Below, piece by piece: positions 6,294-43,906 of a stretch of DNA of 43,906 bases. Within the stretch, counting starts at the first letter, position 1, and each line of letters starts with the position of its first letter. The position numbers were made by a program, and so were the translations under genes. Below the pieces are notes generated by a model. That model was not told the origin of the DNA, made no database searches, and saw only the letters and a program-made list of their open reading frames with translations. This DNA is from an uncultured virus (IMG/VR IMGVR_UViG_2811995274_000001) (taxonomy: Duplodnaviria; Heunggongvirae; Uroviricota; Caudoviricetes): IMG/VR virus record IMGVR_UViG_2811995274_000001. One strand, 5' to 3'.

Positions 6294-6295
6294 TT

Positions 6296-17140: not shown

Positions 17141-17188
17141 ATAATAATAACTTCTTTTATCAAAAAAAATAAAAGAAGTTATTATTAT
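17141..17188. terminator. Inverted repeat between convergent genes, probable terminator
   Basis: ATAATAATAACTTCTTTTAT-caaaaaaa-ATAAAAGAAGTTATTATTAT, 20-bp perfect stem. Confidence 0.75.
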
Positions 17189-18325: not shown

Positions 18326-18384
18326 TAAAAATTTTAATAGAATTATAAGATTTACAAATGTTTAATAAGAAAGGAGAAATATTT

Positions 18385-23668: not shown

Positions 23669-23688
23669 AAAGAGGTGATTATTTTAAA

Positions 23689-28900: not shown

Positions 28901-29404
28901 GGAACTTTGCAAAATATTAGCTCTAGTGGAATTATAAACCAAAATATTATTGTTTCGGCTACTACTGCAAATTTAATTTCTACAAATTATAGTTATGATT
29001 TTAAAATAGAATACGCAACTTCTACCGATACTAATGCTACTTATGCTAATATAAAATATCCTTTATATCGTTTCGGCAATAATATTAGTTCTACTTGGCC
29101 AAGTGGACAAAACTATGGCGGAAATCTTACCCCTATTGATGTTATTGCAATAAATACTGTATATGATTCAGCTATACAGTATCAATATACTAAGCCATTA
29201 CCAGACGAAATAAAATCTGTTTTTATTAAATTAGTTTGTAAAGATGGGGAACATTATTTAGGACATTTTACTAGAAACGAATTCGATCAATATGGAGATA
29301 TTTATCATTCTAAAATATTAGGAACAAAAAATAATTTTGATTTATTTAAAAGATTATACGATTCACAAGAAGTATTTACTTGTGTTGTTGGTATAGAAAC
29401 TTAA
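25985..29404 (+). CDS. Large putative receptor-binding/tail spike protein (1139 aa)
   Basis: TTG start with SD AGGAGGT; paralogue of 25272 with a ~690-aa aromatic-rich insert and a C-terminal B-repeat-like unit (ITIKQTPNQTIHV...KPDLWYVAG). Confidence 0.65.
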   Translation: MISKIGDTIVSGNLDIISSNTELNSDNVNIKNNTILLNSKETSNKISNNVAGLEINRGTSLPYQILYDERDSELKSGLSNNLKPISSEEYTTTNVTNAKTDLNTQIYKNDFMNELPKIGYYQEDTIEVLSKYNMNYQVNSTSHHITLENNGQEVLYTTANDGSLDTSVDMYKAIRNGNTNFTFYNTPIRPKCLENKSITSILYVDNNHMICSGKDFSNTLIDTKYTSQDSLWEIIYDSITTQITKDGYTLYNCYITKDRKFLISGFIINSPSNKQTSHFAIKIIRLSDLSLLQEFTFDNIFNYYRCNNGMTYSKTINDITDALDPKADTIPINWWISPGFLFDEENNIVSINMQQIRYYAFFNNTFSYQDHYGAHFPLCWKVDKTFWLGESKNITSLITSKFYPSDNMNTNYNSLYSKYSYDHINKYAYRISKIRDDKLVQVICFDLKKMTQGVNQEHYGDNNNAIVYNSQSLPLSPDSSYWGKKMNKIPFFNNTMFIQGESKAYGDKVIKINKFKWKNKDLRIIEPMPGQYNIDFDNKISKAISAVFNSSNKVTYRQKDNSVTYGYGQYSNNKIISYSMNIQEDYSYSWQQIDSIDWSFNANMMKDPDYTNISILSVVPNPIKNEYFLILRYNNTELDLPHTYKIFFGLLDKNKIFHSFGTSFIDKFDSGLKSTNDTAHNNLPNQTSITIYHIIYDAVNDWYIFGHNWYRQQSYATNYSMIKFINNNTDIEMHSINPKNSITYDYTTIINNNFKITYSGPTLGYIAATTYNNNSWVYNNKGVVTQKKILADDIQDNGIAYSDNDFLFNQKGYKYSWFLQSSQGLICYIPNIPIFLGGYFSVLNEVLSVDLKPNINNYIYLERDLNTNQLKAYALTTKDIEEGSKQFSRILLARILTNEANPIETEYYRINTGYNDYTFYHKITIKQTPNQTIHVYTTENGQRVDHTTSFFVKINSNIQYSIEIKPDLWYVAGTLQNISSSGIINQNIIVSATTANLISTNYSYDFKIEYATSTDTNATYANIKYPLYRFGNNISSTWPSGQNYGGNLTPIDVIAINTVYDSAIQYQYTKPLPDEIKSVFIKLVCKDGEHYLGHFTRNEFDQYGDIYHSKILGTKNNFDLFKRLYDSQEVFTCVVGIET

Positions 29405-29455
29405 TAAAAAAAGAGATGTGCTATACATAAAGTATATTACATCTCTTTTTTTATT
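29403..29455. terminator. Bidirectional intrinsic terminator
   Basis: AATAAAAAAAGAGATGT ... ACATCTCTTTTTTTATT, 17-bp perfect arms. Confidence 0.85.
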
Positions 29456-29598
29456 GTTAAGATATTTAAGTCGTGAAATAATCTTTTTTATTATAAAAAA
29501 AAATTAATCAATAGTCAACTTTTCTAATAAATATATAATAATAACTAATTTAATAAGTAATATATGTATGTAAAAAAAATTATAAAGGAGAAAGATTT

Positions 29599-31287
29599 AT
29601 GACAATTTACAAACCTATGTTGAATCAAATCAATGGTGGTGCAGAACTAAGAAGTGATGTAGATGCATTACAGAAATCTTATGATGCTGCAAAAGTTATT
29701 ACTACTGTAAGTAAAGAAGAAGAAGGCAATTATAACGCTGATGAATTGTTTAAAAAAATTCAAAGCGATATTACTGCATTAGATTCTAAAACTGAATCAA
29801 ATTTAGAATCATTTAAAAATAAAGTAGTAAAAGATATTGTAAAAGTTGAAATGACTGCTACTTATGAAGTAGATCACTTTACAGTTACATTACCAGAAGA
29901 ATTTGATTCTTTAGTTCCTAGTGCTGATAAAGGAACACCTGTAGCTATTTATAATCTAGACAATAGCGCTGTAATTGGCGAAGATGGAGAACAGTTAACT
30001 ATTAATTTAACAAATATGACTTTATCTGGAACACCATCTAAAATAGATCCTGAAGGATCAGCTGGATTAGAAGAAGGCGAAATTGCTTATAAACCTATTC
30101 AAGAAACTTTTAAATTTAAATGTTTTCCAGTAGGTACTTTTAGCTTATTTAATATTCCAGATAATTATCTTCTTGATAATTCTGAAATGCAACTTGTTCA
30201 TTATGACAAAGCCTTACATTCTATCGTTGCTGATTTAGCTCAAGATCAATCTTTAATAGATAAAATTTCTGGATTAGTTGGTGAAGAAGCAGTAGCTTCT
30301 CAAATTAATAAAGTAAAAGCTGAATTAGTTCGAACAGATGAAGAGTTAAAACAACGTGCAACTGCTATTGAAGTTTATGTAAAAGAAGCAGGTTTAGATG
30401 CTAACTCTAAAAAAGTTATTAACGTAGCAGATGGAGAAATTGTTTCTGAAGGTAAAAACGCTGTTAACGGTGGTCAGGTTTATACTGTTAAAACAACATT
30501 AGAAGCCAAAGATACTGAATTAGAACAATCTATAACTGAATTAGAAGAAAATGTAACAACTAATCATGAAGCATTGTCTGGTCGTGTAACTAAAGTTGAA
30601 GCTTATGTTAAAGAAACAGGCTTAAATGCTAATTCTAAAAAAATCGTTAATGTTCTTGATGGAGATATCTCTGAGTCTAGTACAGATGCTGTTAATGGAA
30701 AACAGTTAGATACTATTAATAAAGCATACAAAGCAGCAGATGCTGGATTACAAGCATCTATTTCTAGCGTACAAGAAGATTTAGAAGCTAAAAATTCAGC
30801 AATGAACGATCGTGTAGCTATTATTGAAGGCTTTGTTACTAGTGGTGGCATTAATGCTGGAAATAAGAAAGTTACTAATGTGTTAGATGGCGAAATTGCT
30901 TCTGAAAATAAAGATGCTGTTAATGGTGGACAAGTATACGCAATTAAAACAGCATTAGAAGCTAAAGACGCAGAAATAGAAGGTAAACTTTCTGCTGCTA
31001 CTGTTAAAGTAACATTACCTGTAGAACATGTACAAGAATTTGCGCTTAATGGTGAAGCTATGACAGAATTTGTCTTAGAAGCTAAACCAAATTCTTATAA
31101 AGTTACTATGAACGTAAATGGTATTGTTTACGAAGAAGGTATGGGAGCATTTACTGTAGATAGAGAAAGTGAAAATAAACTTACTTGGGTAGCTCCGGAC
31201 TTTGAACTTAAACAAGATGTTGCAAAAAAAGTTTTTGTACGTTTCGTAGAAAATAAAGAAAGTTCAATTGCTTTAACTTTAGGATAA
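29599..31287 (+). CDS. Fibre protein with three YadA-stalk (trimeric autotransporter neck)-like repeats
   Basis: Units at 30394, 30622 and 30850 (228-nt period): [L/I].A..KK[V/I].NV.DG.I......AVNG.Q, each followed by a heptad coiled coil; no signal peptide or beta-barrel anchor seen. Confidence 0.75.
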   Translation: MTIYKPMLNQINGGAELRSDVDALQKSYDAAKVITTVSKEEEGNYNADELFKKIQSDITALDSKTESNLESFKNKVVKDIVKVEMTATYEVDHFTVTLPEEFDSLVPSADKGTPVAIYNLDNSAVIGEDGEQLTINLTNMTLSGTPSKIDPEGSAGLEEGEIAYKPIQETFKFKCFPVGTFSLFNIPDNYLLDNSEMQLVHYDKALHSIVADLAQDQSLIDKISGLVGEEAVASQINKVKAELVRTDEELKQRATAIEVYVKEAGLDANSKKVINVADGEIVSEGKNAVNGGQVYTVKTTLEAKDTELEQSITELEENVTTNHEALSGRVTKVEAYVKETGLNANSKKIVNVLDGDISESSTDAVNGKQLDTINKAYKAADAGLQASISSVQEDLEAKNSAMNDRVAIIEGFVTSGGINAGNKKVTNVLDGEIASENKDAVNGGQVYAIKTALEAKDAEIEGKLSAATVKVTLPVEHVQEFALNGEAMTEFVLEAKPNSYKVTMNVNGIVYEEGMGAFTVDRESENKLTWVAPDFELKQDVAKKVFVRFVENKESSIALTLG

Positions 31288-31298
31288 AATACATATAA

Positions 31299-31346
31299 TT
31301 ATAATAAAAGCCTCCCTATAAAAAAAAGGGGAGGCTTTTATTATAA
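31299..31346. terminator. Intrinsic terminator
   Basis: TTATAATAAAAGCCTCCC ... GGGAGGCTTTTATTATAA, 18-bp arms. Confidence 0.88.
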
Positions 31347-31406
31347 CGACATATTTTTATAGTAATACTTTTTTAGATATTATAAAGATGTTATGAGGTG
31401 AATACA

Positions 31407-32789
31407 ATGTCTAGAAGAATGCCTAGAGGTGTTCGTAAAGTAAATGAAAACATAATACAAGATGGTCGTTCTTTAATCATAAATGAAGAAAATGAAAAAA
31501 ATATATCATGGGAAAATATACCTGATGGTTCAATAAAAATAAATTCTTCTAATGGTATGATGTATGTAAAAATAAAAGGAGAATCTGACTGGATTCCAGC
31601 TGGAATAAAAAATGATGGTACCTTATCTATAGCTAAAGATACATTTATCATAGAAGAAATATTTACTATAAAAACTTTATCTGATGGTAATGGAGAATTT
31701 TCTTATTATAATACAGAAGGAGAAGTACGACACGGAGAATTATTGGAAGACGGTTCTTATGTATTTACATTAGAAAAAGGCTCTTATCCTATGCTTAGAA
31801 ATCATTTAGAAATTATAATTGATGATGCATTACGTAGAACAGCTATTTCTGGTGGAATAAAAGAAATATCTAATACAAAATTTGCTATAACTGAAAAATT
31901 AGTTGTAGATCAAGAAATTACTGTAAGGTATTTAAGTAGTAATAGGATAGGAAATCCTTATCCTAGAATATTTTTAACTTCATATACTCCAGAACAGGCA
32001 GAAAACGGAGATTTATGGTTAGATTATGATGCAACATTAGATGATGATGATTTAATAGGAGAAGATATTGAAGCTGATACTGTAATAGGTTGGGATAGAA
32101 TCGTTGGGAAGCCAACTACAATAAATGGATATGGTATTATAGACAATATTTCTTATGTAGACCATAAACATAAAATGGAAGATATTACTGATTTAAGTTT
32201 TCCAAATACTAATAAAGCTAATGGTGGTAATGCGGATACAGTAAATCACTATACTGCTGATAATAATAAGCCAAATACATTAGCTATTTTAGACTCTATA
32301 GGGCAATTACCATCTGCTAATATAGGTTCTCATAGACATAATGTGACAGATATAATAGACCTAAATAATTTTAAGCCAACAGGCGGTAATGCAGATACAG
32401 TAAATCATTATACAGCGGACAATAATAATCCTAACACATTAGCTATTTTAGATTTAAATGGACAAATTCCTTCTAATAAAATAGCTTCTCATAAACATAA
32501 TATATCAGATATAAATGATTTAAACAGTAAAATTTCTAATATAGAAAATTCTTTAAATGCAATTTTTACTAGAGGAATGATTATACAATGGTATGGATCA
32601 GCTTCTACTCCTCCATCTGGATGGGCAATTTGCAATGGATCTAATGGGACACCAGATTTACGTAATAAATTTATTGTAGGAGCTGGTTCTTCATATAATT
32701 TAGGAAATGCAGCAAGCGTAGTTTCTAAACAATCAGGCACAGTATCTAATTCTACAATATATGCTTTGTACTATATTATGAAATTATAA
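31407..32789 (+). CDS. Tail fibre protein with C-terminal tail-collar domain
   Basis: Start moved to ATG 31407 (SD GAGGTG); WDRIVGKPTTINGYGI, HxH...DI.DL fibre motifs; GMIIQWYGS...PPSGWAICNGSNGTPDLRNKFIVGAG...YALYYIMKL. Confidence 0.88.
   Translation: MSRRMPRGVRKVNENIIQDGRSLIINEENEKNISWENIPDGSIKINSSNGMMYVKIKGESDWIPAGIKNDGTLSIAKDTFIIEEIFTIKTLSDGNGEFSYYNTEGEVRHGELLEDGSYVFTLEKGSYPMLRNHLEIIIDDALRRTAISGGIKEISNTKFAITEKLVVDQEITVRYLSSNRIGNPYPRIFLTSYTPEQAENGDLWLDYDATLDDDDLIGEDIEADTVIGWDRIVGKPTTINGYGIIDNISYVDHKHKMEDITDLSFPNTNKANGGNADTVNHYTADNNKPNTLAILDSIGQLPSANIGSHRHNVTDIIDLNNFKPTGGNADTVNHYTADNNNPNTLAILDLNGQIPSNKIASHKHNISDINDLNSKISNIENSLNAIFTRGMIIQWYGSASTPPSGWAICNGSNGTPDLRNKFIVGAGSSYNLGNAASVVSKQSGTVSNSTIYALYYIMKL
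32223..32525 (+). repeat. Two-copy 159-nt (53-aa) internal duplication
   Basis: GGNADTVNHYTADNN.PNTLAILD..GQ.PS..I.SH.HN..DI.DLN starting at 32223 and 32382, synonymously diverged. Confidence 0.85.
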
Positions 32790-32804
32790 TAAGGAGGTAC
32801 GTTA

Positions 32805-34496
32805 ATGGCGCTAGATAATAAATATGATAATTTTTCTAAATACAAAGGAAAAATAAAGATTAGAAATTTAGATCCAGAAGTTATTTCTCTTATTAACACA
32901 GGAGGATCTTCTGGTGGTTCTGGATACGATGATACAGAAATAAGAAATGATCTAGAGTCTATTCATGATACATTAGATTCTCATGATAATTTAATTAATA
33001 ATATTAACACTAAAATTAGTAGTGCTGCTACGAAAACAGAATTAAATCAATTTAGGAGAAAAGATGTTGATATTACATATAATGACTTAGATCCTGATCT
33101 AAAAGAAAGATTAAGAAATAAAGATTCAGGATCCGGTGGTTCATCAGACAATGATGACGATATTTTAACGGAATTGGAAGAATTAAAATCAAAAGTAACT
33201 ATTAATACTGGAAATATTAACAATAATACTTCAAATATTAATAGCATATCACAAGCATTAGATAACTATAAAACAGAATCTACTAACAAAAATAATGAAC
33301 AAGATGCTACTATTTCTAGCAATACTAATAGAATTCAACAGTTAGAAAATAAAGTTACTGAAAATAATGAAATTACTTTTGATGATTTAGATCCAGATTT
33401 AGCTGTTAAAATTGAACAAATTAATAATTTTTCTTCAGATATTAATAGTCTTGAACAAAAAGTGTCTAATAATACATTAAGTATAAGTAATATTAATTTA
33501 GATCTTTCTAATTTAACATCAAACTTCTCAGATTTAAGTCAAAGCATTGATTCAAAAATTAATAATATTAATGAAGTTGTTGAACAAAATACTAATAATA
33601 TTGACGATATAGATAATACATTAAATACATTAACAATTGATAAAATTATTAGTTTCACTAATACTCCTGAAGAGCCAGATAAAGGAAAAATAAAAATTAA
33701 TAATTTAACTTCTGATTTAGCAGATAAAATTAATAATTTATCTAGCTTTAGTACAGATATAGAAGATATTAAAAATTCAATTATTCATCCAGGTAGAAAT
33801 ATAATTGGACAAGATAATCAATTTGTATATAAAAATGGAGAAGATTTATACACAAAAAGAATATTTTCTTTTTTTAATACAGCTTCAACAGAAGAAGAAT
33901 TTTCATCTCTGAAAACTCAAAATAAAAGTCCAATTTACTACAGAGTAGATAATAATATATATGAAGTATCTGGATCAGATTGGATAGCTGTTGAGGACGG
34001 TTTATCAAATGTAAATTATAATAATATTTATTTGTTCGATCCTGAACATGGAAGTTTTTACTTTAATGACAATGGATCTTTAATCAACATTTTATCTCAA
34101 GATGATATGGATAAAGGCTTGTTCTTGGGTAATTGGTCATTTATACCAGGCGAAAATACTTTTCAACTTAAATATTTAGACGACGTTTTTCAAGAATGGA
34201 GCGTTTCTGATACAGATACAAATACATTAAACGATAATATTTCTTTAATGTCCTTAAATGATAATGATAAAAATGATGAATATACTGAATTAATTTATAC
34301 AATAAACAAAAAAGATTCTACATCTATAAAATTAAACAAAAAACAACAGTATACATGTAAAATACTAATATTAGATAAAGCAACTGGACTATACACTGAT
34401 TATGATTATAAAATGTTTAAAACATATTATCTATCAGATAGTATAAAAATTTTTAATTTAACAGATTCATCAATAACAATCAAAATAGTATATTAA
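32805..34496 (+). CDS. Coiled-coil fibre-like structural protein
   Basis: SD AAGGAGGT; repeated I...[N/D]LDP[D/E] motifs, GGSSGGSGYDDTEIR linker, Asn-rich heptads. Confidence 0.6.
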   Translation: MALDNKYDNFSKYKGKIKIRNLDPEVISLINTGGSSGGSGYDDTEIRNDLESIHDTLDSHDNLINNINTKISSAATKTELNQFRRKDVDITYNDLDPDLKERLRNKDSGSGGSSDNDDDILTELEELKSKVTINTGNINNNTSNINSISQALDNYKTESTNKNNEQDATISSNTNRIQQLENKVTENNEITFDDLDPDLAVKIEQINNFSSDINSLEQKVSNNTLSISNINLDLSNLTSNFSDLSQSIDSKINNINEVVEQNTNNIDDIDNTLNTLTIDKIISFTNTPEEPDKGKIKINNLTSDLADKINNLSSFSTDIEDIKNSIIHPGRNIIGQDNQFVYKNGEDLYTKRIFSFFNTASTEEEFSSLKTQNKSPIYYRVDNNIYEVSGSDWIAVEDGLSNVNYNNIYLFDPEHGSFYFNDNGSLINILSQDDMDKGLFLGNWSFIPGENTFQLKYLDDVFQEWSVSDTDTNTLNDNISLMSLNDNDKNDEYTELIYTINKKDSTSIKLNKKQQYTCKILILDKATGLYTDYDYKMFKTYYLSDSIKIFNLTDSSITIKIVY

Positions 34497-34510
34497 AAAG
34501 GAGAAATAAT

Positions 34511-35470
34511 ATGGCAATTTTAAAATATAATAAAGATAATAAATGGACGTCTTTATATTCTGATGCAATAAAAAATAGATTAAAAAAATCAAATAATTTA
34601 TCAGACTTAGAAAATATAGAAGAAGCTAGGACTAATTTAGAGCTTACTGGAGATAATAATCATACACATTACCATGATGATAGATACCTTCCAAAAATAG
34701 AAGCAGAACAAGAACAACGTATTGCTGAAGATAATAGTATTAAAGAAATGATAAGTTCACAAACCAATGAAATTAATAATTCAATTAATACAGCAATAGA
34801 TTCTGTAAATAAAACTATTGAAGAAAAAATAGATTCTAAAATTAATGATAAATATTCAGAATTAAAAAATGACATCAAAGAAGAAGCAGATATTAGAGCA
34901 TCTGAAGATGCCAAATTAAAAAATTCAATTTCTTCGTTAACTAATACTATTAATTCTATTAATAATTCTATGGATAGCAAAAACGATGAATTACAACAAA
35001 AATTAGAGAACGAAATATCCGAAAGAAAAAATCAAGATACACTTGCTTCTAATGATAGAAATAGCATAAAGACAAAACTAAATAATGAAATAGAAGAAAG
35101 AAAGAATCAGGATATTATTGCTTCTAATGATAGGAATACTATAAAAAATAGTATTTTAACTGAAACATCTGAAAGAAAAACAGCCGATCAAAATCTACAA
35201 AATCAAATAAACGCCAATAAAAATCAAGTTAATACTTTGTTATCTAAACAAACAGTTTCTGGATCAACCCAAGGAGCAATTTCAAGTGTGGGAGATTATG
35301 ATTCCGGTACATATCGTACAACTTTTAAAACTAATACTGGAATAGGTTCTGGCACATACAGTTTAAATGATTTACTTATTAAACTTGTACAAATGAGTCA
35401 TACTCATAGCGGTTCATCTGCAAAAATAAACTGCAACTGTAATTGCAATTGTAATAGCCATAGTCACTAA
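34511..35470 (+). CDS. Fibre-like coiled-coil protein with C-terminal (Asn-Cys)4 motif; candidate radical SAM substrate
   Basis: LKKSNNLSDLENIEEARTNL and HTHYHDDRY fibre motifs; E..ER..[Q/A]D coiled-coil repeats; ends SHTHSGSSAKINCNCNCNCNSHSH. Confidence 0.7.
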   Translation: MAILKYNKDNKWTSLYSDAIKNRLKKSNNLSDLENIEEARTNLELTGDNNHTHYHDDRYLPKIEAEQEQRIAEDNSIKEMISSQTNEINNSINTAIDSVNKTIEEKIDSKINDKYSELKNDIKEEADIRASEDAKLKNSISSLTNTINSINNSMDSKNDELQQKLENEISERKNQDTLASNDRNSIKTKLNNEIEERKNQDIIASNDRNTIKNSILTETSERKTADQNLQNQINANKNQVNTLLSKQTVSGSTQGAISSVGDYDSGTYRTTFKTNTGIGSGTYSLNDLLIKLVQMSHTHSGSSAKINCNCNCNCNSHSH

Positions 35471-35505
35471 GAAAGGAAAGATAATTAAAAAGAAGGAGAA
35501 TGTAT

Positions 35506-36213
35506 ATGAATTTATATAGTTATAAAACTACAAAAGATTGTCCTTTTCAGACTATAATTGTTAAAGATAATATTATAACATTAAGTATAACTTTAAATAA
35601 CCAAAGAGATGCATATATAAAAACAAAAATTATAGATATATCAAAATTGGATAAAAATAAGATATATACTTTAAATTATTTAATAGATGGATATTATCAA
35701 TTTTTAATTGATGATGAACATGAACCAATTTCTGAATATGCAGCTTTAAGAATATACATATCTAATAATAATGCTGTCGAATTATATTCTCCTATAAATA
35801 TTTACATATCTGAAACATCTGAACAAATCAATAGAATTTATTTAGATAATTTTGGTAAATTTAATTTTAGAGCAGAAATATCAAATAAATATCTAGAATA
35901 TCAAGAAAAAAGTAAAAAGATTGCTTATCATGATATGTTACATGATTTGATAGATGCTAATTACTCATGTACGTGTCAAGACGCTCAAATAGAAATTTTA
36001 ACAAAAATAATATTAAATATTCTAAAAAATAATCCTAAAATAATTACTGAGGACTGTTTGAGTAATTTAGATACAGTTATAAATTCATTAAACGACACAT
36101 CATTATTTAATATTAAAAATGAAGAAAGTATTATTAAAGAAATAGAAAACAAAAAATATATACGTAACTTACAAAAAGAATATTATTCTTTAAAAAGTAA
36201 TATGGAGGACTAA
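35506..36213 (+). CDS. Hypothetical protein; possible chaperone or accessory factor of the fibre/radical SAM locus
   Basis: SD AAGGAG spaced for ATG 35506; beta-like N-half, helical C-half; sits in the slot where fibre chaperones usually lie. Confidence 0.55.
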   Translation: MNLYSYKTTKDCPFQTIIVKDNIITLSITLNNQRDAYIKTKIIDISKLDKNKIYTLNYLIDGYYQFLIDDEHEPISEYAALRIYISNNNAVELYSPINIYISETSEQINRIYLDNFGKFNFRAEISNKYLEYQEKSKKIAYHDMLHDLIDANYSCTCQDAQIEILTKIILNILKNNPKIITEDCLSNLDTVINSLNDTSLFNIKNEESIIKEIENKKYIRNLQKEYYSLKSNMED

Positions 36214-36220
36214 ATATAAT

Positions 36221-36445
36221 ATGGATAATGTAAAGGATATATATATTAATAGCATTAATGAGCTCCACAAAGGCGCTATAGCAATATATGATGAGATTTT
36301 CATTAATAATATAAAATCATTTAAAGTTATCATTAATGATTATTCTGACAAATATATTGATAAATTAGCTATATTTGCAGATATATTAAATGATATGTCT
36401 AAACAATTTAACGTAGAAATAATGGTATCTATTAATGAAAAATAA
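36221..36445 (+). CDS. Small hypothetical protein (74 aa) coupled to the first radical SAM gene
   Basis: SD GGAGG; 3' end overlaps the start of 36435. Confidence 0.6.
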   Translation: MDNVKDIYINSINELHKGAIAIYDEIFINNIKSFKVIINDYSDKYIDKLAIFADILNDMSKQFNVEIMVSINEK

Positions 36446-37388
36446 AAAATTAGCTATTTATATAAACGATATATGTAATAGAAATTGTTCTTTTTGCTAC
36501 GTCAATAAAACAAATAAAATTATGACATTGGAGACCGCCAATAAAATTATTTCTTATATCAATGATAATGATATATATAAAACTATAATATTTGTTGGTG
36601 GCGAACCAACATTAACTCCTGACTTAATAAAATATTTTATAGATAATATTAAAATTAACGTAAAATATGGAGTAATGACTAATGGAATAATAAAAAATTT
36701 AGACATATTTAAACCATATAAAAATCTTACTTTTAATATATCATTTATCAATGAAAAAGATCCGGATAATTACTATAAAGAAATGACTATTAAAAAACTT
36801 AATGATTTAAATATTAAATATAATGCTTTGATAGTTAATACACCAAATAATATTGTTAATTTACTAAATATATTTAAATACATAATAAAATTAAAACCAA
36901 CATATATTAAATTATTGAGACAGCATAAAATGGGAGATATCTGGACATTAAATGATATATACAAATATAAAGAAATTCTTCCTAAATTAATACATTTTAG
37001 TATTTATTGTAAAGAAAAATTTAAAACATATAATCAGATAAGTTTGCCTAATAAAATAGACATACCTATACGATATAGTTCTGAAGTTTATGATAAATTT
37101 GAAATTAATTTAGTAGATCAAGATTCTATTTGTAAATATGATATTGTAGGAGTAGATGGAAAACAATACTTATGTGACGGAGCTTGTGGAGAGAATAAGT
37201 ATTGTTTTGGTTATATTTGGGATAAACCTAATAATCCGTACTTAATACATAATTTTGGATATGAAGATGTATTATATGATTATTGTTATTTAGCTAATAA
37301 TAAAGTATGTTTAGATTTCGATAAAATTAATGATGAATATAGAGATTATTATAATAATATTATTTCTAAGATTGAGGGATTAAAATGA
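36435..37388 (+). CDS. Radical SAM protein 1 (Twitch-like C-terminus)
   Basis: CNRNCSFC (CxxxCxxC), FVGGEPTL, MTNG; C-terminal SICKYDIVGVDGKQYLC. Confidence 0.92.
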   Translation: MKNKKLAIYINDICNRNCSFCYVNKTNKIMTLETANKIISYINDNDIYKTIIFVGGEPTLTPDLIKYFIDNIKINVKYGVMTNGIIKNLDIFKPYKNLTFNISFINEKDPDNYYKEMTIKKLNDLNIKYNALIVNTPNNIVNLLNIFKYIIKLKPTYIKLLRQHKMGDIWTLNDIYKYKEILPKLIHFSIYCKEKFKTYNQISLPNKIDIPIRYSSEVYDKFEINLVDQDSICKYDIVGVDGKQYLCDGACGENKYCFGYIWDKPNNPYLIHNFGYEDVLYDYCYLANNKVCLDFDKINDEYRDYYNNIISKIEGLK

Positions 37389-38230
37389 GAACATATGATA
37401 ATAGTACAACAGTTTCTTTACATATAACAGATAGATGTAACTTAAGATGTCCACACTGTTATATGAAAGATTTTTCTGGTTATGAAAATAATATAAATAT
37501 TAAAAAAGCATTTGAATCCGTAAAAGTATTAAAGCCAAAAACTTTAATCATTTACGGAGGAGAACCTATGTTATACCCTAATATTATTAATCAAATTTTT
37601 GATGAATTTGAAAATAATATGCATGTAGTAGTAGCTACTAACGGTACTATATGGAATAAAGAAATATATGATAGAGCATATATTATTATGGTTACTTTAG
37701 AAAGTTTCTTTTTTAACTATTCAAAGAATAGAACGTACACAAGATCTCAGTATAATAATTTAATAAAATTAATAGATACTTATAAAGATAAATTAATTTT
37801 AACTCATAACTTATACCCTAAAAACAACGATCCATTCTACGATAGAATGATTAAATTAACAGAACTAAATAGTAATCCATATCCTATAGTAGATTTTTGT
37901 GAAGAAGCAGATTTTGAGCCTAATATTTTACAAGAATATAATACTAACTTAAATCCTTTGCTTGTACCAAAATTAAGAGTTCTCCCAGATGGTACGATAA
38001 CTAAAGATATGAGAGGCGTCTATAATATATGTAAAGATGCAAGTGAATGGAAAGAAGAATACAGAAATAAATCTGTACCTAGTCATGATAAATGTAAAAA
38101 ATGTGAATATCAATATACTTGTCCTTCTTATAAGATGTTCCCACATTTTTGTAAAGATGTCTTAGATAGAATAGACGATCCACATTTTTGTAAGATTGCG
38201 AGATGGAAAAGTAATGAATTCAAAAATTAA
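37385..38230 (+). CDS. Radical SAM protein 2 (partial SPASM)
   Basis: CNLRCPHC, IYGGEPML, ATNG; C-terminal CKKCEYQYTC...HFC; overlaps the upstream gene by 4 nt. Confidence 0.92.
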   Translation: MRTYDNSTTVSLHITDRCNLRCPHCYMKDFSGYENNINIKKAFESVKVLKPKTLIIYGGEPMLYPNIINQIFDEFENNMHVVVATNGTIWNKEIYDRAYIIMVTLESFFFNYSKNRTYTRSQYNNLIKLIDTYKDKLILTHNLYPKNNDPFYDRMIKLTELNSNPYPIVDFCEEADFEPNILQEYNTNLNPLLVPKLRVLPDGTITKDMRGVYNICKDASEWKEEYRNKSVPSHDKCKKCEYQYTCPSYKMFPHFCKDVLDRIDDPHFCKIARWKSNEFKN

Positions 38231-39344
38231 AAAATTCTTTGATACAGATATAGATAAAGTTTATATTTTATTAGGCGATTATTGTAATATGAAATGTAAA
38301 TATTGTTTCCATAATAATGATGTTATGCCTTATATTGACGAAAAAATCAATGAAGATATATTTCCTTTTATAGAAACAATTGCTTCTCGACAAAAAAGCC
38401 CATTAAACGTTAGATTTTTTGGAGGAGAGCCATTAATATATTTTGATAAAATGAAATATATTATAGAAAAATTAGCTCATGTCCCTAATATATTTTTTAC
38501 TACTATTACAAATGGAAAATCAATAACTCAAGAGATAGTAGATTTTTTTAATAAATATAATGTAATGGTAAGCGTTAGTTGGGACGGACACAAGGCTTCA
38601 AAAGAATTTAGAGGTTTTGATTGTTTTGATACTAATAAAAATTTATTATTACAGTTAAAAAAAGTCGAAGTTCTTGCTACGTTTGTTAATTTTTTAAAGA
38701 TAGACGATTTTTTATCTGATTTAGAAAATATAAATAATGAGTATTTTAATATTCATGGAGAAATTATTGGTTTTACTTGGGCTCCTATAGATGATGTTGG
38801 TAGTCAAAAAGAATATTTAAGTAAAGCAATGTTTGATGATTTATATAAAAAATCTGAAGAAGTATGTAATAGAGTTAAAGACGCAATTAGAAAAAAACAT
38901 AAAACACCATTTGATTTAGTTATGATATATGCCCTATATTCTGATTTATGTACTATAGAATCAAGAGATTTTGGTACAAGTGCTGAACGACTTATTGCAG
39001 AAGGAAGCGATAATCCTAAAATCTATTCAATTGATTTAAATGGAGATTTTTATCAATTTCATAGATATCCTAAAAGTTCTTCAAAATCTAAAAAATTAGG
39101 TAATATATATATGCATTATTATGCTTATATGCAATCATATTTAAGTCAAAATAAGTTTGCTGAACAATGTGCAAGAGTAGGATGCTATAATTGCGATATA
39201 AATCATTTTTGTAAAGGACCTGGTCCTCACGTTTGTGAAGAATCAGAAAAGAAATGTTGTCGTATTAGATACGCTTTATATAAACCTATTGTTAATTTAA
39301 TAGAATGGCTTCAGCATGGAGGAATAGATCTGCATGATTTATGA
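38214..39344 (+). CDS. Radical SAM protein 3 (anSME-like, degenerate SPASM)
   Basis: CNMKCKYC, FFGGEPLI, ITNG, VSWDG; C-terminal CYNCDINHFCKG...C...CC. Start probably ATG 38214. Confidence 0.92.
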   Translation: MNSKIKKFFDTDIDKVYILLGDYCNMKCKYCFHNNDVMPYIDEKINEDIFPFIETIASRQKSPLNVRFFGGEPLIYFDKMKYIIEKLAHVPNIFFTTITNGKSITQEIVDFFNKYNVMVSVSWDGHKASKEFRGFDCFDTNKNLLLQLKKVEVLATFVNFLKIDDFLSDLENINNEYFNIHGEIIGFTWAPIDDVGSQKEYLSKAMFDDLYKKSEEVCNRVKDAIRKKHKTPFDLVMIYALYSDLCTIESRDFGTSAERLIAEGSDNPKIYSIDLNGDFYQFHRYPKSSSKSKKLGNIYMHYYAYMQSYLSQNKFAEQCARVGCYNCDINHFCKGPGPHVCEESEKKCCRIRYALYKPIVNLIEWLQHGGIDLHDL

Positions 39345-40170
39345 TGAAGATAGAGCTATATTTTTTGAAATAACTAATATATGTAATCATAGATGTATTC
39401 ATTGTTGTAAACAATGGGAAGATAACAGTATAAATAGAATAGCTTCTTTTGAAACTTTAGATAAAATTATTTCTTTGCCTAAAAAATCTTTAACTATATC
39501 TGGAGGAGAGCCTTCATTGGTTAGAGATAAAGTATATTATTTAATAAATAATGAGTCTAAACATATTACTATTAATACTAATTTAACTGGTTGGAGTAAG
39601 CAAGATATAGCATTTATTAATAATAATGATAAAACTAATTTTAATGTGTCTGTTGTTTCTCTTAAAAGAGATATTTATGAAGAAATAACTAAATCTATTA
39701 CATATGATATTTTTATCAAAAATTTAAATTTGTTAAACAATAAACATTACATAACTATTGTTGTAAATAATATAAATTTAGATAGTGTAGATTTTACTAT
39801 TAAAATTTTATTGTTAATGGGTTTTAAAAATATACTTGTTACTCCTCAAGTGCCTACACCTAATCTAAGTGTTGATGTTAATTTAGTAATAAACATGGTT
39901 AAAAATCTTCATAACAAATATAACAATATTGCTAATATAGTTACTCAAGGATTTTGTAATTTAGATTTTTGTGATCATAAATGCGAAGCTGGTATAGGAA
40001 GATTTTTAATAGATACAAAAGGAGACGTCTATCCATGCGCTCCAATACATAGAGAATGTAAATTAGGAACTATAGATACTGATATAGATATTTTAAAAAG
40101 AAATGGTACAAATTTCTTTTTAAGTTACAATGATCAACAAAAATTTTTATGTAAAGGTTTTATGCTTTAA
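39334..40170 (+). CDS. Radical SAM protein 4 (Twitch/SPASM first half)
   Basis: CNHRCIHC, ISGGEPSL; CEAGIGRFLIDTKGDVYPC; SD GGAGGA. Confidence 0.92.
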   Translation: MIYDEDRAIFFEITNICNHRCIHCCKQWEDNSINRIASFETLDKIISLPKKSLTISGGEPSLVRDKVYYLINNESKHITINTNLTGWSKQDIAFINNNDKTNFNVSVVSLKRDIYEEITKSITYDIFIKNLNLLNNKHYITIVVNNINLDSVDFTIKILLLMGFKNILVTPQVPTPNLSVDVNLVINMVKNLHNKYNNIANIVTQGFCNLDFCDHKCEAGIGRFLIDTKGDVYPCAPIHRECKLGTIDTDIDILKRNGTNFFLSYNDQQKFLCKGFML

Positions 40171-40180
40171 GGAGATTTTT

Positions 40181-41275
40181 ATGTTAGAAATAAAACATGA
40201 TATAAACACAATATTTGTTATGTTAGGACAACAATGTAATTTAAATTGTAAATATTGTATGCAACATGATTTAATTATTGATGTGCTTCCTAAAAGATTT
40301 ATTCACCATGATATTATTAATTTTATTAAATATCATGCTAATAAACAGGAAAGACCTATAGATATACGATTTTATGGAGGAGAACCATTAATATATTTTA
40401 ATGATATAAAACAAATTGTTAATTTATTAAAAGAAGATAATGTTTCTTTTTCTATAATATCTAACGGAAAGTTGATAAATGAAAATATAGTAAAATTTTT
40501 TAATGATAATAATTTTTCGAGTGTAGCAATTAGTTGGGACGGTATTGATAGTATTAAAACAAGACTATATGATGTTTTTAAAGAAAAACAAAATTTACTT
40601 TTAAATATAAATAATCTTTGTATTAGTGGAGTTATTTCATCCTTTAATTATCCAAATTCTTTTATCAATTCTATAAAACCTTTTATAGAAGAATATTATC
40701 GTATCCATAATTATATGATAAATTTTTCAAAAGATGAAATAATGGATATGAATGCATGTCATTCTGATTTAAGGACATTTGATTATAATGAAATCAATAA
40801 ACAAATGAATATTTTAGTTAATAATATAAAAAAATCATTTGTTAATATGGAAACTAGTAACATAAGTTTAAATGATTATCTATATATATCACTATTTACT
40901 ATGTATTGTAATTCTATACAATCTGGATTAAACAGTTATACTCGAAGCTTTTGCGGCAATGGAATAAATGTTATCAATTTAGATTTAGAAGGTAATTTAT
41001 ATCAATGTCATAATAATTGGATTAAAATAGGAGATATCAATTCTGACTATAATACTTACATCTTAAAAGCAAAAGAGTTAGATACTATTACACTTAATAA
41101 TTTTAATAGTACTTGTAAAAACTGTTCTATTTTATCCTTATGCAAATGTGGATGTCCATTAATTAAACAAGATATTAGAAAAAAAACTGATTTTTGTAAG
41201 TTACGTAAAGCTATATATGAGCCTATCATAAATTTAGTCAATGAAGCTATTGCTAACAATGGTTCTTTTTATTAA
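40181..41275 (+). CDS. Radical SAM/SPASM protein 5 (anSME/peptide-maturase-like)
   Basis: CNLNCKYC, FYGGEPLI, ISWDG; complete SPASM CGNG...GNLYQC...CKNCSILSLCKCGC...FC. Start ATG 40181 behind AAGGAG. Confidence 0.94.
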   Translation: MLEIKHDINTIFVMLGQQCNLNCKYCMQHDLIIDVLPKRFIHHDIINFIKYHANKQERPIDIRFYGGEPLIYFNDIKQIVNLLKEDNVSFSIISNGKLINENIVKFFNDNNFSSVAISWDGIDSIKTRLYDVFKEKQNLLLNINNLCISGVISSFNYPNSFINSIKPFIEEYYRIHNYMINFSKDEIMDMNACHSDLRTFDYNEINKQMNILVNNIKKSFVNMETSNISLNDYLYISLFTMYCNSIQSGLNSYTRSFCGNGINVINLDLEGNLYQCHNNWIKIGDINSDYNTYILKAKELDTITLNNFNSTCKNCSILSLCKCGCPLIKQDIRKKTDFCKLRKAIYEPIINLVNEAIANNGSFY

Positions 41276-41329
41276 ATATATAATCTATCATAAAAGAGGA
41301 GAATATTTTAAATAAATGGAGTTGATAGC

Positions 41330-41707
41330 ATGAGTGAAGAAAATTCTCATGTACTACAAGAATTAATAATGCAAACAATGGATAATGTTAGAGAATTAAC
41401 AAAACAATTCTCAGAAGTTAAAACATTATTAAGTTCTAGTATGCAAAATAATAATGACATAAATAAACTTTTAGTAGAAAGAGCTGATAGGCATAGAGAA
41501 GAAATTAATAAACTAAAAGATGACGTTAGAAATTTAATGCATTCTCAAATCGATTTAGAAGAATATGATACATTAAAAGATGATGTTGCCGATTTACAAG
41601 AATCACGCTCTGCTACAATTAAAGTTTTTACTATTATAGGCGGATTAATAGGAACTATATTAACTTCCGCTGCTGCTATTTTTATAGATAAGTTTATACT
41701 AAAATAA
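41330..41707 (+). CDS. Holin-like/XhlA-like membrane protein (coiled coil plus C-terminal transmembrane helix)
   Basis: Hydrophobic VFTIIGGLIGTILTSAAAIFI at the C-terminus after a coiled coil; last gene of the late operon. Confidence 0.5.
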   Translation: MSEENSHVLQELIMQTMDNVRELTKQFSEVKTLLSSSMQNNNDINKLLVERADRHREEINKLKDDVRNLMHSQIDLEEYDTLKDDVADLQESRSATIKVFTIIGGLIGTILTSAAAIFIDKFILK

Positions 41708-41748
41708 TAAAAGAGAGCACGATTAAAGTGCTCTCTTTTATTATTTTA
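41700..41748. terminator. Bidirectional terminator between convergent operons
   Basis: TAAAATAATAAAAGAGAGCAC-gattaaa-GTGCTCTCTTTTATTATTTTA. Confidence 0.9.
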
Positions 41749-41944
41749 AATCTAATTCATAAAATGTATTTGAGTTTTTATCAAAATCATAGATTTCATA
41801 GATCTCATTATTGATTAAATTAATTAATGATCCATCTGTATTCATAATATAGTATCCACAATTATTTTCATTTCCGATAATTTTAATCGTTTTTCCTTTT
41901 GCCAATAATTCTATAGCTTTTAGTTTATTTATCTCTTTTATCAT
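41741..41944 (-). CDS. Hypothetical protein (67 aa)
   Basis: SD GAGGT on the - strand; overlaps the end of the excisionase-like gene. Confidence 0.6.
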   Translation of the reverse strand: MIKEINKLKAIELLAKGKTIKIIGNENNCGYYIMNTDGSLINLINNEIYEIYDFDKNSNTFYELDLK

Positions 41945-42284
41945 TTTTACTAATACCTCTTTGTTTTTTTATTAATTCTTTTATATCGTCTATATGAATC
42001 ATTCTTAAAGAATTAATATTAACTTCTGGAAGTATATGCTGGTCCATTAAGCTATATATTGTATTCTTACTTTTTACTCCTAATAATAAAGCAGCATCTG
42101 AAGCAGATACTAAACCTAATGGAGATACTCTTTTTAATACTTCTTTATTTGTATTATTTATTATATTTTTTAAAGTTTTATTTTCTTCGCTTTGTTGTTC
42201 TATATAATTTCTTATAATACCAAATGTTTCTGTTAGATAGTTTAATATATATTCATTTTCTTCAATTTGCATTTTAGTGTACAT
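41925..42284 (-). CDS. Excisionase-like (Xis/HTH_17, MerR-fold) DNA-binding protein
   Basis: LVSASDAALLLGVKSKNTIYSLMDQHILPEVNINSLRMIHIDDIKELI; adjacent to the integrase. Confidence 0.72.
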   Translation of the reverse strand: MYTKMQIEENEYILNYLTETFGIIRNYIEQQSEENKTLKNIINNTNKEVLKRVSPLGLVSASDAALLLGVKSKNTIYSLMDQHILPEVNINSLRMIHIDDIKELIKKQRGISKNDKRDK

Positions 42285-42295
42285 CCCATAAAATA

Positions 42296-42508
42296 TTATT
42301 TTATTATAAAAATATCTGTAGGATTCATTCCCGCTCTAATTAACCCTAATATAAAGTTTCTACCAGGATTCCTTTTTTTACATTTTACCTTGCTGAAAAA
42401 AGAAACAGATATTCCCATATCTAACGCAAATCCTTCATCGGTATAATCATGTTTATTCTGGAATTTAATTATTGCATCTATATTTATTTGTACTGTTCTT
42501 TCATTCAT
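42296..42508 (-). CDS. Cro/XRE-like helix-turn-helix regulator (70 aa)
   Basis: TDEGFALDMGISVSFFSKVKCKKRNPG HTH pattern; SD AAAGGA. Confidence 0.78.
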   Translation of the reverse strand: MNERTVQINIDAIIKFQNKHDYTDEGFALDMGISVSFFSKVKCKKRNPGRNFILGLIRAGMNPTDIFIIK

Positions 42509-42538
42509 CGTTACGGCATCCTTTTCCTATTAATAGTT

Positions 42539-42552
42539 TGCCAGCGCTGACA
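42539..42552. promoter_or_regulatory. GC-rich near-palindrome, candidate operator
   Basis: TGCCAGCGCTGACA (one mismatched pair) overlapping the predicted +1 of the leftward promoter. Confidence 0.55.
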
Positions 42553-42557
42553 TTTAA

Positions 42558-42586
42558 ATTGTATTTTAATATTTTTTTAAAATCAA
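42558..42586 (-). promoter_or_regulatory. Leftward sigma-A-type promoter TTGATT-N17-TACAAT
   Basis: The + strand has attgta (42558-42563) and aatcaa (42581-42586) separated by 17 nt. Confidence 0.55.
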
Positions 42587-42610
42587 CCGACTAATGTACT
42601 ATAATTTTAT

Positions 42611-42639
42611 TTGCCAATAGTCCCAAAAGTTTTTATAAT
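42611..42639 (+). promoter_or_regulatory. Rightward sigma-A-type promoter TTGCCA-N17-TATAAT for the integrase
   Basis: TTGCCA 42611-42616, TATAAT 42634-42639, 17-nt spacer. Confidence 0.65.
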
Positions 42640-42715
42640 AATATTATTAATATATTATTTTTTCTTTTTGTATATATATGTGTGCATCTTTTATTTAAAG
42701 GAGATGTACTATATT

Positions 42716-43906
42716 ATGGCTAGAATTTATAAAAGAGGACAAAAGTGGACATTTCTCGTAGAAAGCGGTAAAACTAAAGATGGTAAAAGAGTGCGTACTA
42801 GTAAAGGCGGATTTAAAACAAGAAAAGACGCTCAACAAGCAGCTTATGAGTACGAAATCAATATGCTAAACAAATATAATGATGTAACAATCACTAAAGT
42901 TACATTGTATGATTTTATGTATAATGATTGGTACCCTTATCATTCTAAATATATAAAAGCTTCTAGTGGATACACGTTATTATCGCACTTAAAAAGAATA
43001 AATAAATATTTTGGTCCGGAAATAAAAATAACTAAGATAACAACTAATGATTGTTTAAAATTTAGATCTTATTTACAAAATGAACTCAAGATAAGACGAT
43101 CAACAAGTATTGTTACTTTTTCTTACTTCAAGAGAATAATGAATTATGCTGCAAACAAAAAAAATATCATTTCTATTGATCCTGCTGAAAAAATATTTTT
43201 AGAAGCACAAACCAATGATGAACGTTACTCTCTCTTTAAATTAAATATTCATAAAAAGTTCTATATAGAAGAAAGTGATTTAAAGATAATATTAGAAAAA
43301 ATAGATTCTATATCTAAAAACGATATTCGAGATTATGAAAAAGTCATGATAACAAAAATAATGCTTAATACTGGACTTAGAATAGGCGAGACATTATCAT
43401 TAACTTGGGACGATATAGATATAGAAAACAATACAATATCTGTTAAAAAGAATATTGTTTGTGTAAAAGGAGAATATGTGTCTCAATCACCTAAAACCAA
43501 AAGTAGTCTTAGAGATGTATCTGTTTCTAGTAAGTTTATGAAAGAATTAAGTGAATATAGATATCTATTATATGATTTTAAACAAACTAGATTTACATGG
43601 GATGATAGTTTTAATTTAGTCTTTCCTTCTTTAGACAAAATAAAAGGAGGATTACCAATGAGATTAAATACCTACAGAAAATGGCTCAAAACGCTTCTTA
43701 TCGATTATCCAGAACTAGATTATATACATCCTCACATTTTTAGACACACACATGCTTCTTTACTTTTACAAGCTGGAGCTAATGTTATAGATGTTGCCAA
43801 AAGATTAGGACATTCAACATCACGTATTACAGAAGCTATATATATACATCTAACCAGAAAACAAGATATAGGTTTGGCAGATAAAATAGAATCTGTATTA
43901 AAATAA
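42716..43906 (+). CDS. int: Tyrosine recombinase/phage integrase with N-terminal arm-binding domain
   Basis: Start moved to ATG 42716 (SD AAGGAG). KRGQKW...SKGGFKTRKDAQ arm domain; catalytic TGLRIGE (R), PKTKSS (K), HIFRH (HxxR), LGH and AIYIH (Y). Confidence 0.96.
   Translation: MARIYKRGQKWTFLVESGKTKDGKRVRTSKGGFKTRKDAQQAAYEYEINMLNKYNDVTITKVTLYDFMYNDWYPYHSKYIKASSGYTLLSHLKRINKYFGPEIKITKITTNDCLKFRSYLQNELKIRRSTSIVTFSYFKRIMNYAANKKNIISIDPAEKIFLEAQTNDERYSLFKLNIHKKFYIEESDLKIILEKIDSISKNDIRDYEKVMITKIMLNTGLRIGETLSLTWDDIDIENNTISVKKNIVCVKGEYVSQSPKTKSSLRDVSVSSKFMKELSEYRYLLYDFKQTRFTWDDSFNLVFPSLDKIKGGLPMRLNTYRKWLKTLLIDYPELDYIHPHIFRHTHASLLLQAGANVIDVAKRLGHSTSRITEAIYIHLTRKQDIGLADKIESVLK

Follow-up and report, generated by a model that had tools for sequence, protein, structure and literature searches.

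A conserved Asn-Cys tail on a phage fibre protein, tightly linked to radical-SAM genes, is a probable substrate for enzymatic modification

We analysed a stretch of 43,906 nucleotides from an uncultured tailed virus (Caudoviricetes; IMG/VR record IMGVR_UViG_2811995274_000001), hereafter the window, which encodes on its plus strand a fibre-like protein of 319 amino acids (positions 34511–35470) ending in an (Asn-Cys)4-Asn tail (residues N307–N315; positions 35429–35455, plus strand). The tail and the C-terminal module that bears it are conserved, occupy the extreme C-terminus and are tightly linked to radical S-adenosylmethionine (radical-SAM) genes, five of which follow the fibre gene in the window. 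Since tails and radical-SAM genes are tightly linked in phage genomes, the most economical reading of the pair is that of enzyme and substrate, and we consider it probable, on this sequence evidence, that the tail is a fibre end modified by the downstream radical-SAM enzymes. That the modification consists of thioethers is suggested by analogy and is less certain than the enzyme–substrate relation.

The fibre protein and selection on its tail

The fibre open reading frame (ORF) was defined from the ORF list, four homologues (P0001–P0004) and their alignment (A1). It ends in ...MSHTHSGSSAKI-NCNCNCNC-NSHSH (whole end, ...LIKLVQMSHTHSGSSAKINCNCNCNCNSHSH), with the stop codon at 35468–35470. As the original prediction had it, the tail contains the only cysteines of the 319-residue protein (residues 308, 310, 312 and 314) and is flanked by HTH and HSH motifs, which we locate at H297-T-H299 and H317-S-H319; the codon for Ser296 of the SHTH motif starts at position 35396. 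Apart from the radical-SAM enzymes, no other plausible ORF of the window contains a cysteine cluster. Three N-x-x-C registers overlap within the tail (N307–C310, N309–C312 and N311–C314), each of them an NxxC substrate motif.

Relatives of residues 225–319 among 5.8 billion proteins numbered four, P0001–P0004. These are 25–55% identical to the fibre over its full length and all of them keep the tail (NCNCNCNCNTHSH, CNCNCNCRCNTHSH, NCNCNCNCVCNSSH and NCNCNCNCCRCGGA), on which grounds the ORF at 34511–35470 is, judged from sequence, real. N307–C312 and C314 are invariant in alignment A1, CNCNCNC is found in 4/4 homologues, and the fibre N-terminus (MAILKY..., GDNNHTHYHDDRYLP) is likewise conserved. 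When the fibre alignment was used to scan viral, genome and metagenome contigs, 603, 29 and 601 pattern matches resulted, respectively, none of them a confirmed relative, and a tblastn search of the fibre against 50,697 phage records gave no match. The AlphaFold monomer has one long, coiled-coil-like helix (residues 60–245, pLDDT, the predicted local distance difference test, >90) and a confident helix at residues 285–297, beyond which the tail is a low-confidence coil whether the 5-sequence or the 59-sequence alignment is used. A coil following a well-predicted helix fits an exposed substrate end, in monomer models that are silent on the trimer.

The four Asn-Cys units at 35429–35452 are encoded AAC-TGC, AAC-TGT, AAT-TGC and AAT-TGT, followed by AAT AGC CAT AGT CAC TAA. 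All four synonymous pairs are thus used, as originally noted, and the strong AT bias cited in the same place is evident from the other plus-strand ORFs of the window, our reference for codon bias, in which 87.4% of Asn codons are AAT and 87.7% of Cys codons are TGT. Under independent synonymous choice, the probability of obtaining all four pairs is 0.0034 and that of four identical units is 0.35; both values are only indicative, since the pattern was picked after being seen.

A comparison across other genomes was obtained by scanning viral contigs with a degenerate (NC)4 DNA pattern, which yielded at least 121 loci; the classes that follow are counted among the matches listed. With a coding tail defined as a match that lies in an ORF of 60 or more codons and no more than 20 codons from its end, 2/71 C-terminal tails were built from one repeated hexamer, compared with 33/52 of the non-coding, internal or tiny-ORF viral matches and 84/111 of the non-tail matches from bacterial and archaeal genomes, the latter mostly microsatellites. 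A mixture of synonymous codons thus marks coding tails in general. These uniform matches also indicate that perfect AAYTGY repeats do exist as non-coding microsatellites, which is the one point in favour of reading the tail as a slipped hexanucleotide repeat without function. All four units differ here, however, the tail is kept in homologues of 25–55% identity and across the 197 matches of a module profile (see below), and the number of units is held at 3–6, which argues against a free-running microsatellite. We rate the chance of a slipped repeat as negligible and have ruled it out on the mixed units, the conserved tail and the confined unit number. The central claim of the original prediction, that the tail is selected as protein, is thereby confirmed at the level of sequence, and the alignment of homologues proposed there as a check on conservation and copy number of the repeat came out in its favour, with CNCNCNC invariant in 4/4 homologues and 3–6 units in 136 wider relatives.

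Linkage of tails to radical-SAM genes

The five radical-SAM genes of the window (36435–41275) lie on the same strand as the fibre gene and begin 965 bases past the fibre stop. They are co-directional with it and tightly packed or overlapping, and no terminator-like site was found on the plus strand between 32000 and 42000. All five ORFs exceed the cut-off for the Radical SAM superfamily (Pfam PF04055; 44.8–50.4 versus 29.5 bits) and all contain CX3CX2C. The first, rs1 (36435–37388, plus strand; 317 amino acids, 50.4 bits), has this motif at residues 14–21 and seven more cysteines after residue 190; rs2 (37385–38230, plus; 281 amino acids, 48.4 bits) has it at 18–25, together with CX2CX5C at 237–246. 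The radical-SAM/SPASM-like rs3 (38196–39344, plus; 382 amino acids, 46.7 bits) carries the motif from residue 30 and CX2CX5CX7C at 330–347, and rs4 (39334–40170, plus; 278 amino acids, 44.8 bits) carries it from residue 17 along with a weak SPASM/twitch-like C-terminal Cys cluster. The last, rs5 (40130–41275, plus; 381 amino acids, 46.9 bits), is a probable radical-SAM/SPASM protein with the motif at 36–43.

Linkage elsewhere was assessed by searching the five window enzymes against all ORFs of the fetched loci (phmmer, E<1e-3). A viral locus was considered assessable if it had a C-terminal tail of at least (NC)4 in an ORF of at least 90 codons and at least 3 kb of downstream DNA; again, all counts are among the matches listed. 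A same-strand radical-SAM homologue was present within 3 kb downstream in 32 of 34 assessable viral loci, and a 33rd (L001) has one at 3086 bases. Dereplication left 29 tail families, 20 of them assessable, and 19/20 had a radical-SAM homologue within 3.2 kb downstream. Control matches (non-C-terminal or in short ORFs) had a radical-SAM gene in 4/33 cases, and all four positives (L010, L018, L062 and L078) proved to be free-standing short modules, each with three radical-SAM genes behind it. Of the non-tail matches from bacterial and archaeal genomes, 1/118 had a radical-SAM homologue in its locus; among tails in cellular genomes with enough flanking sequence, L130 and L179 have a radical-SAM gene.

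The window's own module type was sought in viral contigs by means of a degenerate pattern for GTYTLxxLLQxLV, which gave six loci. All five with downstream DNA carry two to four radical-SAM genes directly after the module gene, and in L126 and L129 the first of these starts 25 bases after it with no ORF between. Orthologues of rs5 stand by related modules in L128 (E=4e-71), L033 (E=7e-70) and L126, L127 and L129 (∼1e-36). Judged from these loci, multi-enzyme cassettes are normal for the window's module type and rs5 is their conserved core.

This linkage bears directly on the view that disulfides between the chains knot the cysteines together and so lock the trimer once it has been released from the cell, the enzymes being unrelated passengers. 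C-terminal cystine knots are known in collagens, and the cysteines do cluster at the end of a trimer-type fibre. Such a knot nevertheless leaves the linkage between tail and radical-SAM genes unexplained and offers no reason for the conserved Asn, Asp or Gln between the cysteines, and we hold it to be very improbable.

Two ORFs separate the fibre from the enzymes. The first (237 amino acids; 35500–36213, plus) had no Pfam, PHROG or NCBIfam match and no phmmer relative in the 121 viral loci listed, and its best protein-atlas score (0.78) is within the range of shuffled sequences; on this showing the system does not include it as a conserved component. The second (74 amino acids, no Cys; 36221–36445, plus) overlaps the start of rs1, had no match in the same three family collections and no relative in the viral loci listed, and its best protein-atlas score (0.84, to unnamed clusters) is again within the range of shuffled sequences; that it is a small partner or recognition protein is a guess. 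Since neither has relatives in the viral loci, they are not counted as parts of the system.

Further features were seen in the loci themselves. The L033 phage (41% G+C; minus-strand orientation, 1842–8215) encodes a 207-residue protein with the module, ending in NCNCDCGDDM, together with its rs5 orthologue, two more small Cys-rich proteins of C-Q-x-C repeats ending in NCNCNCNCSNCDCGDDGG, and a second radical-SAM gene just ahead of lysis-type genes; the layout of L128 is identical. Because L033 and L128 carry these extra Cys-rich proteins, one cassette may serve several substrates. Separately, the viral loci L007, L021, L008, L036, L039, L026, L034 and others encode unrelated phage proteins with (NC)n ends. 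Many of these proteins also have further Asn-Cys-rich stretches upstream (e.g. NCNCG..NC and CTNC..NCDGQ.WLQ), which suggests cysteine-ladder domains larger than the simple tail of the window.

The C-terminal module and its relatives

The tail belongs to a C-terminal module (residues 246–319; 35246–35470, plus strand) that was delineated with alignments A2 and A4 and a profile search. In the window protein it consists of a small beta unit, the helix LNDLLIKLVQMS, SHTH, an 8-residue linker, (NC)4 and NSHSH. Across relatives it spans ∼70 residues, with a beta unit, a TY-x-L-x2-LL-x2-LV helix, SHTH, a linker of 8–12 residues and a run of x-Cys units, and it occurs on its own (proteins of 54–135 amino acids; in viral contigs as small ORFs, alignment A2) as well as joined to other fibres. 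The A2 profile retrieved 197 proteins at E≤0.001 from 1.84 billion cluster representatives, 28 of them at E≤1e-10, and the following counts cover the 150 that were listed. A run of at least three x-Cys units is present in 144/150 and stops no more than 12 residues from the C-terminus in 122/150. Free-standing and fused forms both exist, since 72 of the listed relatives have 135 residues or fewer and 78 are longer.

Among 136 classified relatives, in which the number of x-Cys units is 3–6, two types were distinguished. The fused/long type (91 proteins), to which the window protein belongs, has the consensus GxxAGTYTLQxLLQxLVNxSHTH...NCNCNC[DN]C, and the residues between its cysteines are 62% N and 25% D. 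The short type (45 proteins) has the consensus TFxxMLxVLxxLxxHTHxFYDDY..CNCNC..TRGxL, with 56% N, 19% Q and 12% A between the cysteines. In the 59-sequence alignment A4, C308, C310 and C312 (tail positions 63, 65 and 67) are invariant and conservation of the first SHTH histidine is 90% or higher; the C-terminal HSH is confined to close relatives and absent from most. A model of the module built from this alignment has a helix at module residues 40–51, a strand at 55–60 and a coiled tail with pLDDT falling from 55 to 47. Foldseek found nothing in the PDB at E≤0.001 (top match E=2.7), and against PDB sequences the module profile reached a phi29-type head fibre at E=0.11 only, i.e. no solved relative.

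These features are the proper place to consider the metal or iron–sulfur binding tip put forward in the original prediction, in which the 12 thiols of a trimer together with SHTH and HSH would sit on the three-fold axis and bind metal ions, with the radical-SAM genes serving another purpose or cluster loading. Iron and zinc sites of the HxH kind are established in T4 gp37 and gp12. The C-x-C-x-C spacing would bring the thiols of an extended strand all to the same face, and the strongly conserved first His of SHTH points the same way, as do the collagen triple-helix repeats present in 2/19 NC-tailed proteins tested (L007 and L049), which fit trimeric fibres. A tip of this kind would, however, leave the near-obligatory radical-SAM neighbour unexplained given the background of 1/118 among the matches listed; the interleaved residues are Asn, Asp and Gln rather than His, Cys or typical metal ligands; the terminal HSH is missing in most relatives; and the monomer models contain no compact Cys knuckle. 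We consider a metal-binding tail unlikely; a His-metal site at SHTH, beside the tail, is possible.

An additional observation concerns relatives in which the run is not terminal. In 18/150 listed relatives (P0041, P0043, P0052, P0068, P0072, P0076, P0081, P0102, P0117, P0119, P0121, P0122, P0126, P0130, P0137, P0141, P0145 and P0147) a domain of ∼150–190 residues starting C[FIL][VI]xG follows the run directly. In P0072, Pfam Hom_end_hint, an intein-like Hint family, aligns from profile position 1 right behind the run (41.4 bits, cut-off 32.1); P0052 and P0147 score slightly below the cut-off, and P0043, P0076, P0041, P0081 and P0119 gave no match to this family. A self-cleaving Hint domain in this position would make the Cys tail the mature C-terminus, and its occurrence after the tail in a subset of relatives suggests that the modified tail must end as a free C-terminus.

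At the opposite end of the fibre, GDNNHTHYHDDRYLP (fibre residues 40–60; window 34511–34700) is kept in P0001–P0003 and is similar to the HTHxFYDDY that directly precedes the Cys run in the short free-standing type. It may be a second metal or recognition site.

Family relationships of the enzymes

The SPASM seven-Cys motif reads CX9-15GX4C, CX2CX5CX3C and C. By direct reading, the corresponding cysteines of rs5 are C275-X17-C293 (with GX4C), C329-X2-C332-X5-C338-X3-C342 and C356; rs3 has Phe in place of the GX4C cysteine of rs5, and in none of the five did a hidden Markov model match to SPASM attain its cut-off, rs4 scoring 16.7 versus 21.5 bits for Pfam and 19.7 versus 27 for TIGR04085. The five enzymes share 23–33% identity, mostly in their N-terminal parts, and rs3 and rs5 are paralogues (29% identity over 366 residues). 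The top NCBIfam match of both is PapB (NF047865), a ranthipeptide maturase that forms thioethers, at 96.6 bits (E=1.6e-27) for rs3 and 100.2 bits (E=1.3e-28) for rs5 against a cut-off of 340, followed by QhpD, SCIFF and sactipeptide maturases; PapB scores of rs1, rs2 and rs4 are 43.2, 41.1 and 32.8 bits, also under that cut-off. When the enzymes of the window are taken together with the partner enzymes of tails elsewhere, best PapB scores are 75–122 bits, with a partner maximum of 122.2. The best solved-structure sequence match of rs5 is 5wgg (E=3.9e-9, radical-SAM core only, residues 19–146), which we take to be the thioether maturase CteB. Viperin-like and MoaA/QueE-like matches of rs1, rs2 and rs4 lie far under their cut-offs and were set aside.

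Proposed maturation and points that weigh against it

In the scheme that we favour, a prophage would have fused a conserved module to a coiled-coil tail fibre, with the tail as the substrate end. The five enzymes, with rs5 as SPASM-type core, would act on the tail before or during assembly of the fibre. The cysteine thiols would be bound at an auxiliary Fe-S cluster and hydrogen abstracted from a neighbouring residue, giving thioether bridges from Cys sulfur to carbon of the interleaved Asn (Asp or Gln in relatives), either within one chain or between the three chains, and the outcome would be a covalently stapled fibre end. Thioethers are put forward because the nearest enzyme families form Cys thioethers, because the residues between the cysteines, nearly always Asn, Asp or Gln, match reported acceptor residues, and because N-C-N-C is the N-x-x-C register, the motif of NxxcB. 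The proposal in the original prediction that the tail could be a modification core is strongly, if indirectly, supported by the five radical-SAM genes downstream and the recurrence of the pairing across phages; what we infer is that the enzymes act on the tail, that they form thioethers, which residue accepts the sulfur and what the modified end does for the structure.

Several points weigh against this scheme. It is built on sequence and gene neighbourhood, from which the chemistry is drawn indirectly, and the association loci, found by the (NC)4 DNA pattern, are samples rather than censuses and exclude those encoding P0001–P0004. Radical-SAM genes are absent from the neighbourhood of one tail family (L076) and of one genomic case (L187). 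The scheme does not account for as many as five enzymes on a tail of four cysteines, and rs1, rs2 and rs4 are short and lack a clear orthologue assignment. Overlapping N-x-x-C rings would be sterically unusual. Lastly, curated NCBIfam cut-offs were reached by 0/5 window enzymes and 0/23 partner enzymes elsewhere, so the type of reaction cannot be read from family membership, and rs5 also matches the anaerobic sulfatase maturase, which converts Cys to formylglycine (64.6 bits, below cut-off).

That last match leads to the alternative of a radical-SAM modification of the tail other than a thioether, such as formylglycine from Cys, epimerisation, C-C or C-O cross-links or a reaction at the adjacent His, with steps possibly split between enzymes. 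The divergence of the five enzymes would suit a division of labour, and there are matches to HxsB (62.4 bits for rs3 and 59.9 for rs5; cut-off 370) and HxsC (29.8–36.5 bits for rs1, rs2 and rs4; cut-off 267.9). HXS radical-SAM maturation of a protein is reported to give an unexplained +8 Da change (PMC13128918). All of these matches, however, fall far under the family cut-offs and under the PapB score, and pairing of Cys with Asn, Asp or Gln is the usage of thioether-forming systems. We regard a different chemistry as unlikely, and thioether stapling of the tail by the cassette as the better account.

More tentatively, we propose a generalisation that we would not yet put at even chances: that many phages enzymatically staple their host-binding fibre tips by means of a portable module of ∼45 residues (helix, HxH and (Asn/Asp/Gln-Cys)3–6), fused to or docked with tail fibres, which phage SPASM radical-SAM enzymes would turn into a thioether ladder, possibly joining three chains.

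Genomic setting of the window

The window is very AT-rich (21–32% G+C in 2-kb windows). Tail, baseplate and fibre-like genes fill more than 30 kb almost without break (1–34500) and include a Gp10_C baseplate domain (14944–16599), a gp53-like fibre C-terminus (18358–20232), DUF4376 (21241–21915), DUF285 repeats (23042–25248), YadA_stalk (29599–31287) and a weak match to Collar (31398–32789). The fibre ORF thus sits amid tail-fibre-like genes (Collar, YadA_stalk and tail PHROGs). Giant ORFs of 1656, 1139, 715 and 656 amino acids in the same region are without family match, and a divergent helix-turn-helix repressor-like pair (17188–18241, minus strand) interrupts the run of tail genes. Among the genes of the 43,906 nucleotides, none was recognised as encoding a capsid protein or a terminase.

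Behind the enzyme cassette lie a 125-residue protein with a hydrophobic C-terminus (41330–41707), an excisionase-like HTH_17 protein (41925–42284, minus), a small helix-turn-helix protein (42296–42508, minus) and a tyrosine integrase that runs off the end of the window (42611–43906). The integrase is ∼30% identical to those of phages of Streptococcus, Bacillus and Enterococcus, which indicates that the source is a temperate phage whose host is a Gram-positive bacterium of low G+C. Both the fibre and rs5 are missing from the nearest virus record (G001), whose DNA matches to positions 29000–43906 amount to only two of 30 bases.

Novelty and significance

Our search of full-text literature, which covers sources outside subscription journals, turned up no paper on Asn-Cys tails in phage fibres, none on radical-SAM enzymes that mature virion proteins, and none that connects fibres, such tails and these enzymes; PMC13673991 contained nothing bearing on the subject. 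Radical-SAM genes in phages have been recorded: one report lists a marine T4-like genome with 12 of them, giving no function (PMC5332604), and another names a cyanophage radical-SAM gene an ‘antibiotic synthesis gene’ (PMC12801897). The window presents a case from a temperate phage of low G+C, where the module is joined straight to a coiled-coil fibre and then followed by five enzymes, most likely chemistry of a known kind in a biological setting for which we found no report.

Radical-SAM thioethers are known from small antibiotic-like peptides and two cellular proteins. If the proposed scheme is true, a virus would be using this chemistry on its own particle, a new role and a new kind of virion maturation in which a virion protein receives an enzyme-installed covalent modification by the chemistry of peptide antibiotics, and it would explain why some phages hold many radical-SAM genes. 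Since fibre tips set host range and endure harsh surroundings, a stapled tip would bear on phage stability, host recognition and fibre engineering.

Comparison with known systems

Of the HxH sites of T4 gp37 and gp12, the fibre recalls the position, with SHTH adjoining the tip of a probably trimeric fibre, but the module is without solved-structure match and there is no relation in sequence or fold. To our knowledge, T4 fibres lack a cysteine ladder with dedicated enzymes, which is the distinctive feature here. The HXS system differs in its substrate motif; the tail is flanked by SHTH and SHSH, with no repeated H-x-S.

Closer parallels are found among maturases. PapB, which acts on PapA (freyrasin), is the top curated family for rs3, rs5 and the partner enzymes, with nearly full-length profile matches, and is itself a SPASM-type enzyme working on repeated motifs of Cys and acidic residues. 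PapB uses a C-x3-D spacing. A strict C-x-C repeat cannot offer that spacing, and the enzymes here score 75–122 bits, well below the family cut-off. CteB, the maturase of SCIFF, provides the best solved-structure match of rs5 (5wgg), but the match is limited to core residues 19–146 and the SCIFF model gives 54.3 bits where its cut-off is 425. CteB is a thioether maturase in which the substrate Cys binds an auxiliary cluster.

In terms of substrate motif, the nearest system is NxxcB with its substrate NxxcA. This streptococcal system, whose peptide is made on the ribosome and modified after translation (a RiPP), is reported to form a bond between the sulfur of a Cys and the beta-carbon of the Asn that lies three residues upstream (N-x-x-C), with Asn as native acceptor, Gln, Asp and Ala tolerated, and Cys required (PMC9389541). 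The tail likewise offers three N-x-x-C registers, and among its relatives D or Q can stand in for N. Differences remain in that the likeness is one of substrate motif alone, the registers here overlap, five enzymes stand against one, and NxxcA is a short quorum-regulated peptide and not the end of a 319-residue virion fibre.

For whole proteins, QhpD with QhpC and CrpC with CrpA provide the precedent for SPASM enzymes that cross-link Cys to Asp or Glu; one account describes radical-SAM thioethers installed on whole proteins by CrpC and gives Asp and Glu as the acceptors of QhpD, and a term search of it found no mention of phages (PMC13692751). The QhpD family scores 69.6 bits with rs5, below its cut-off of 453, and the substrates in these systems, in one case a subunit of a cellular enzyme and in the other a Cys-rich protein from an archaeon, are not parts of a virus particle. 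By analogy, maturation in the phage would resemble that of ranthipeptides or of NxxC-type peptides, as well as the cross-linking of proteins by QhpD and CrpC.

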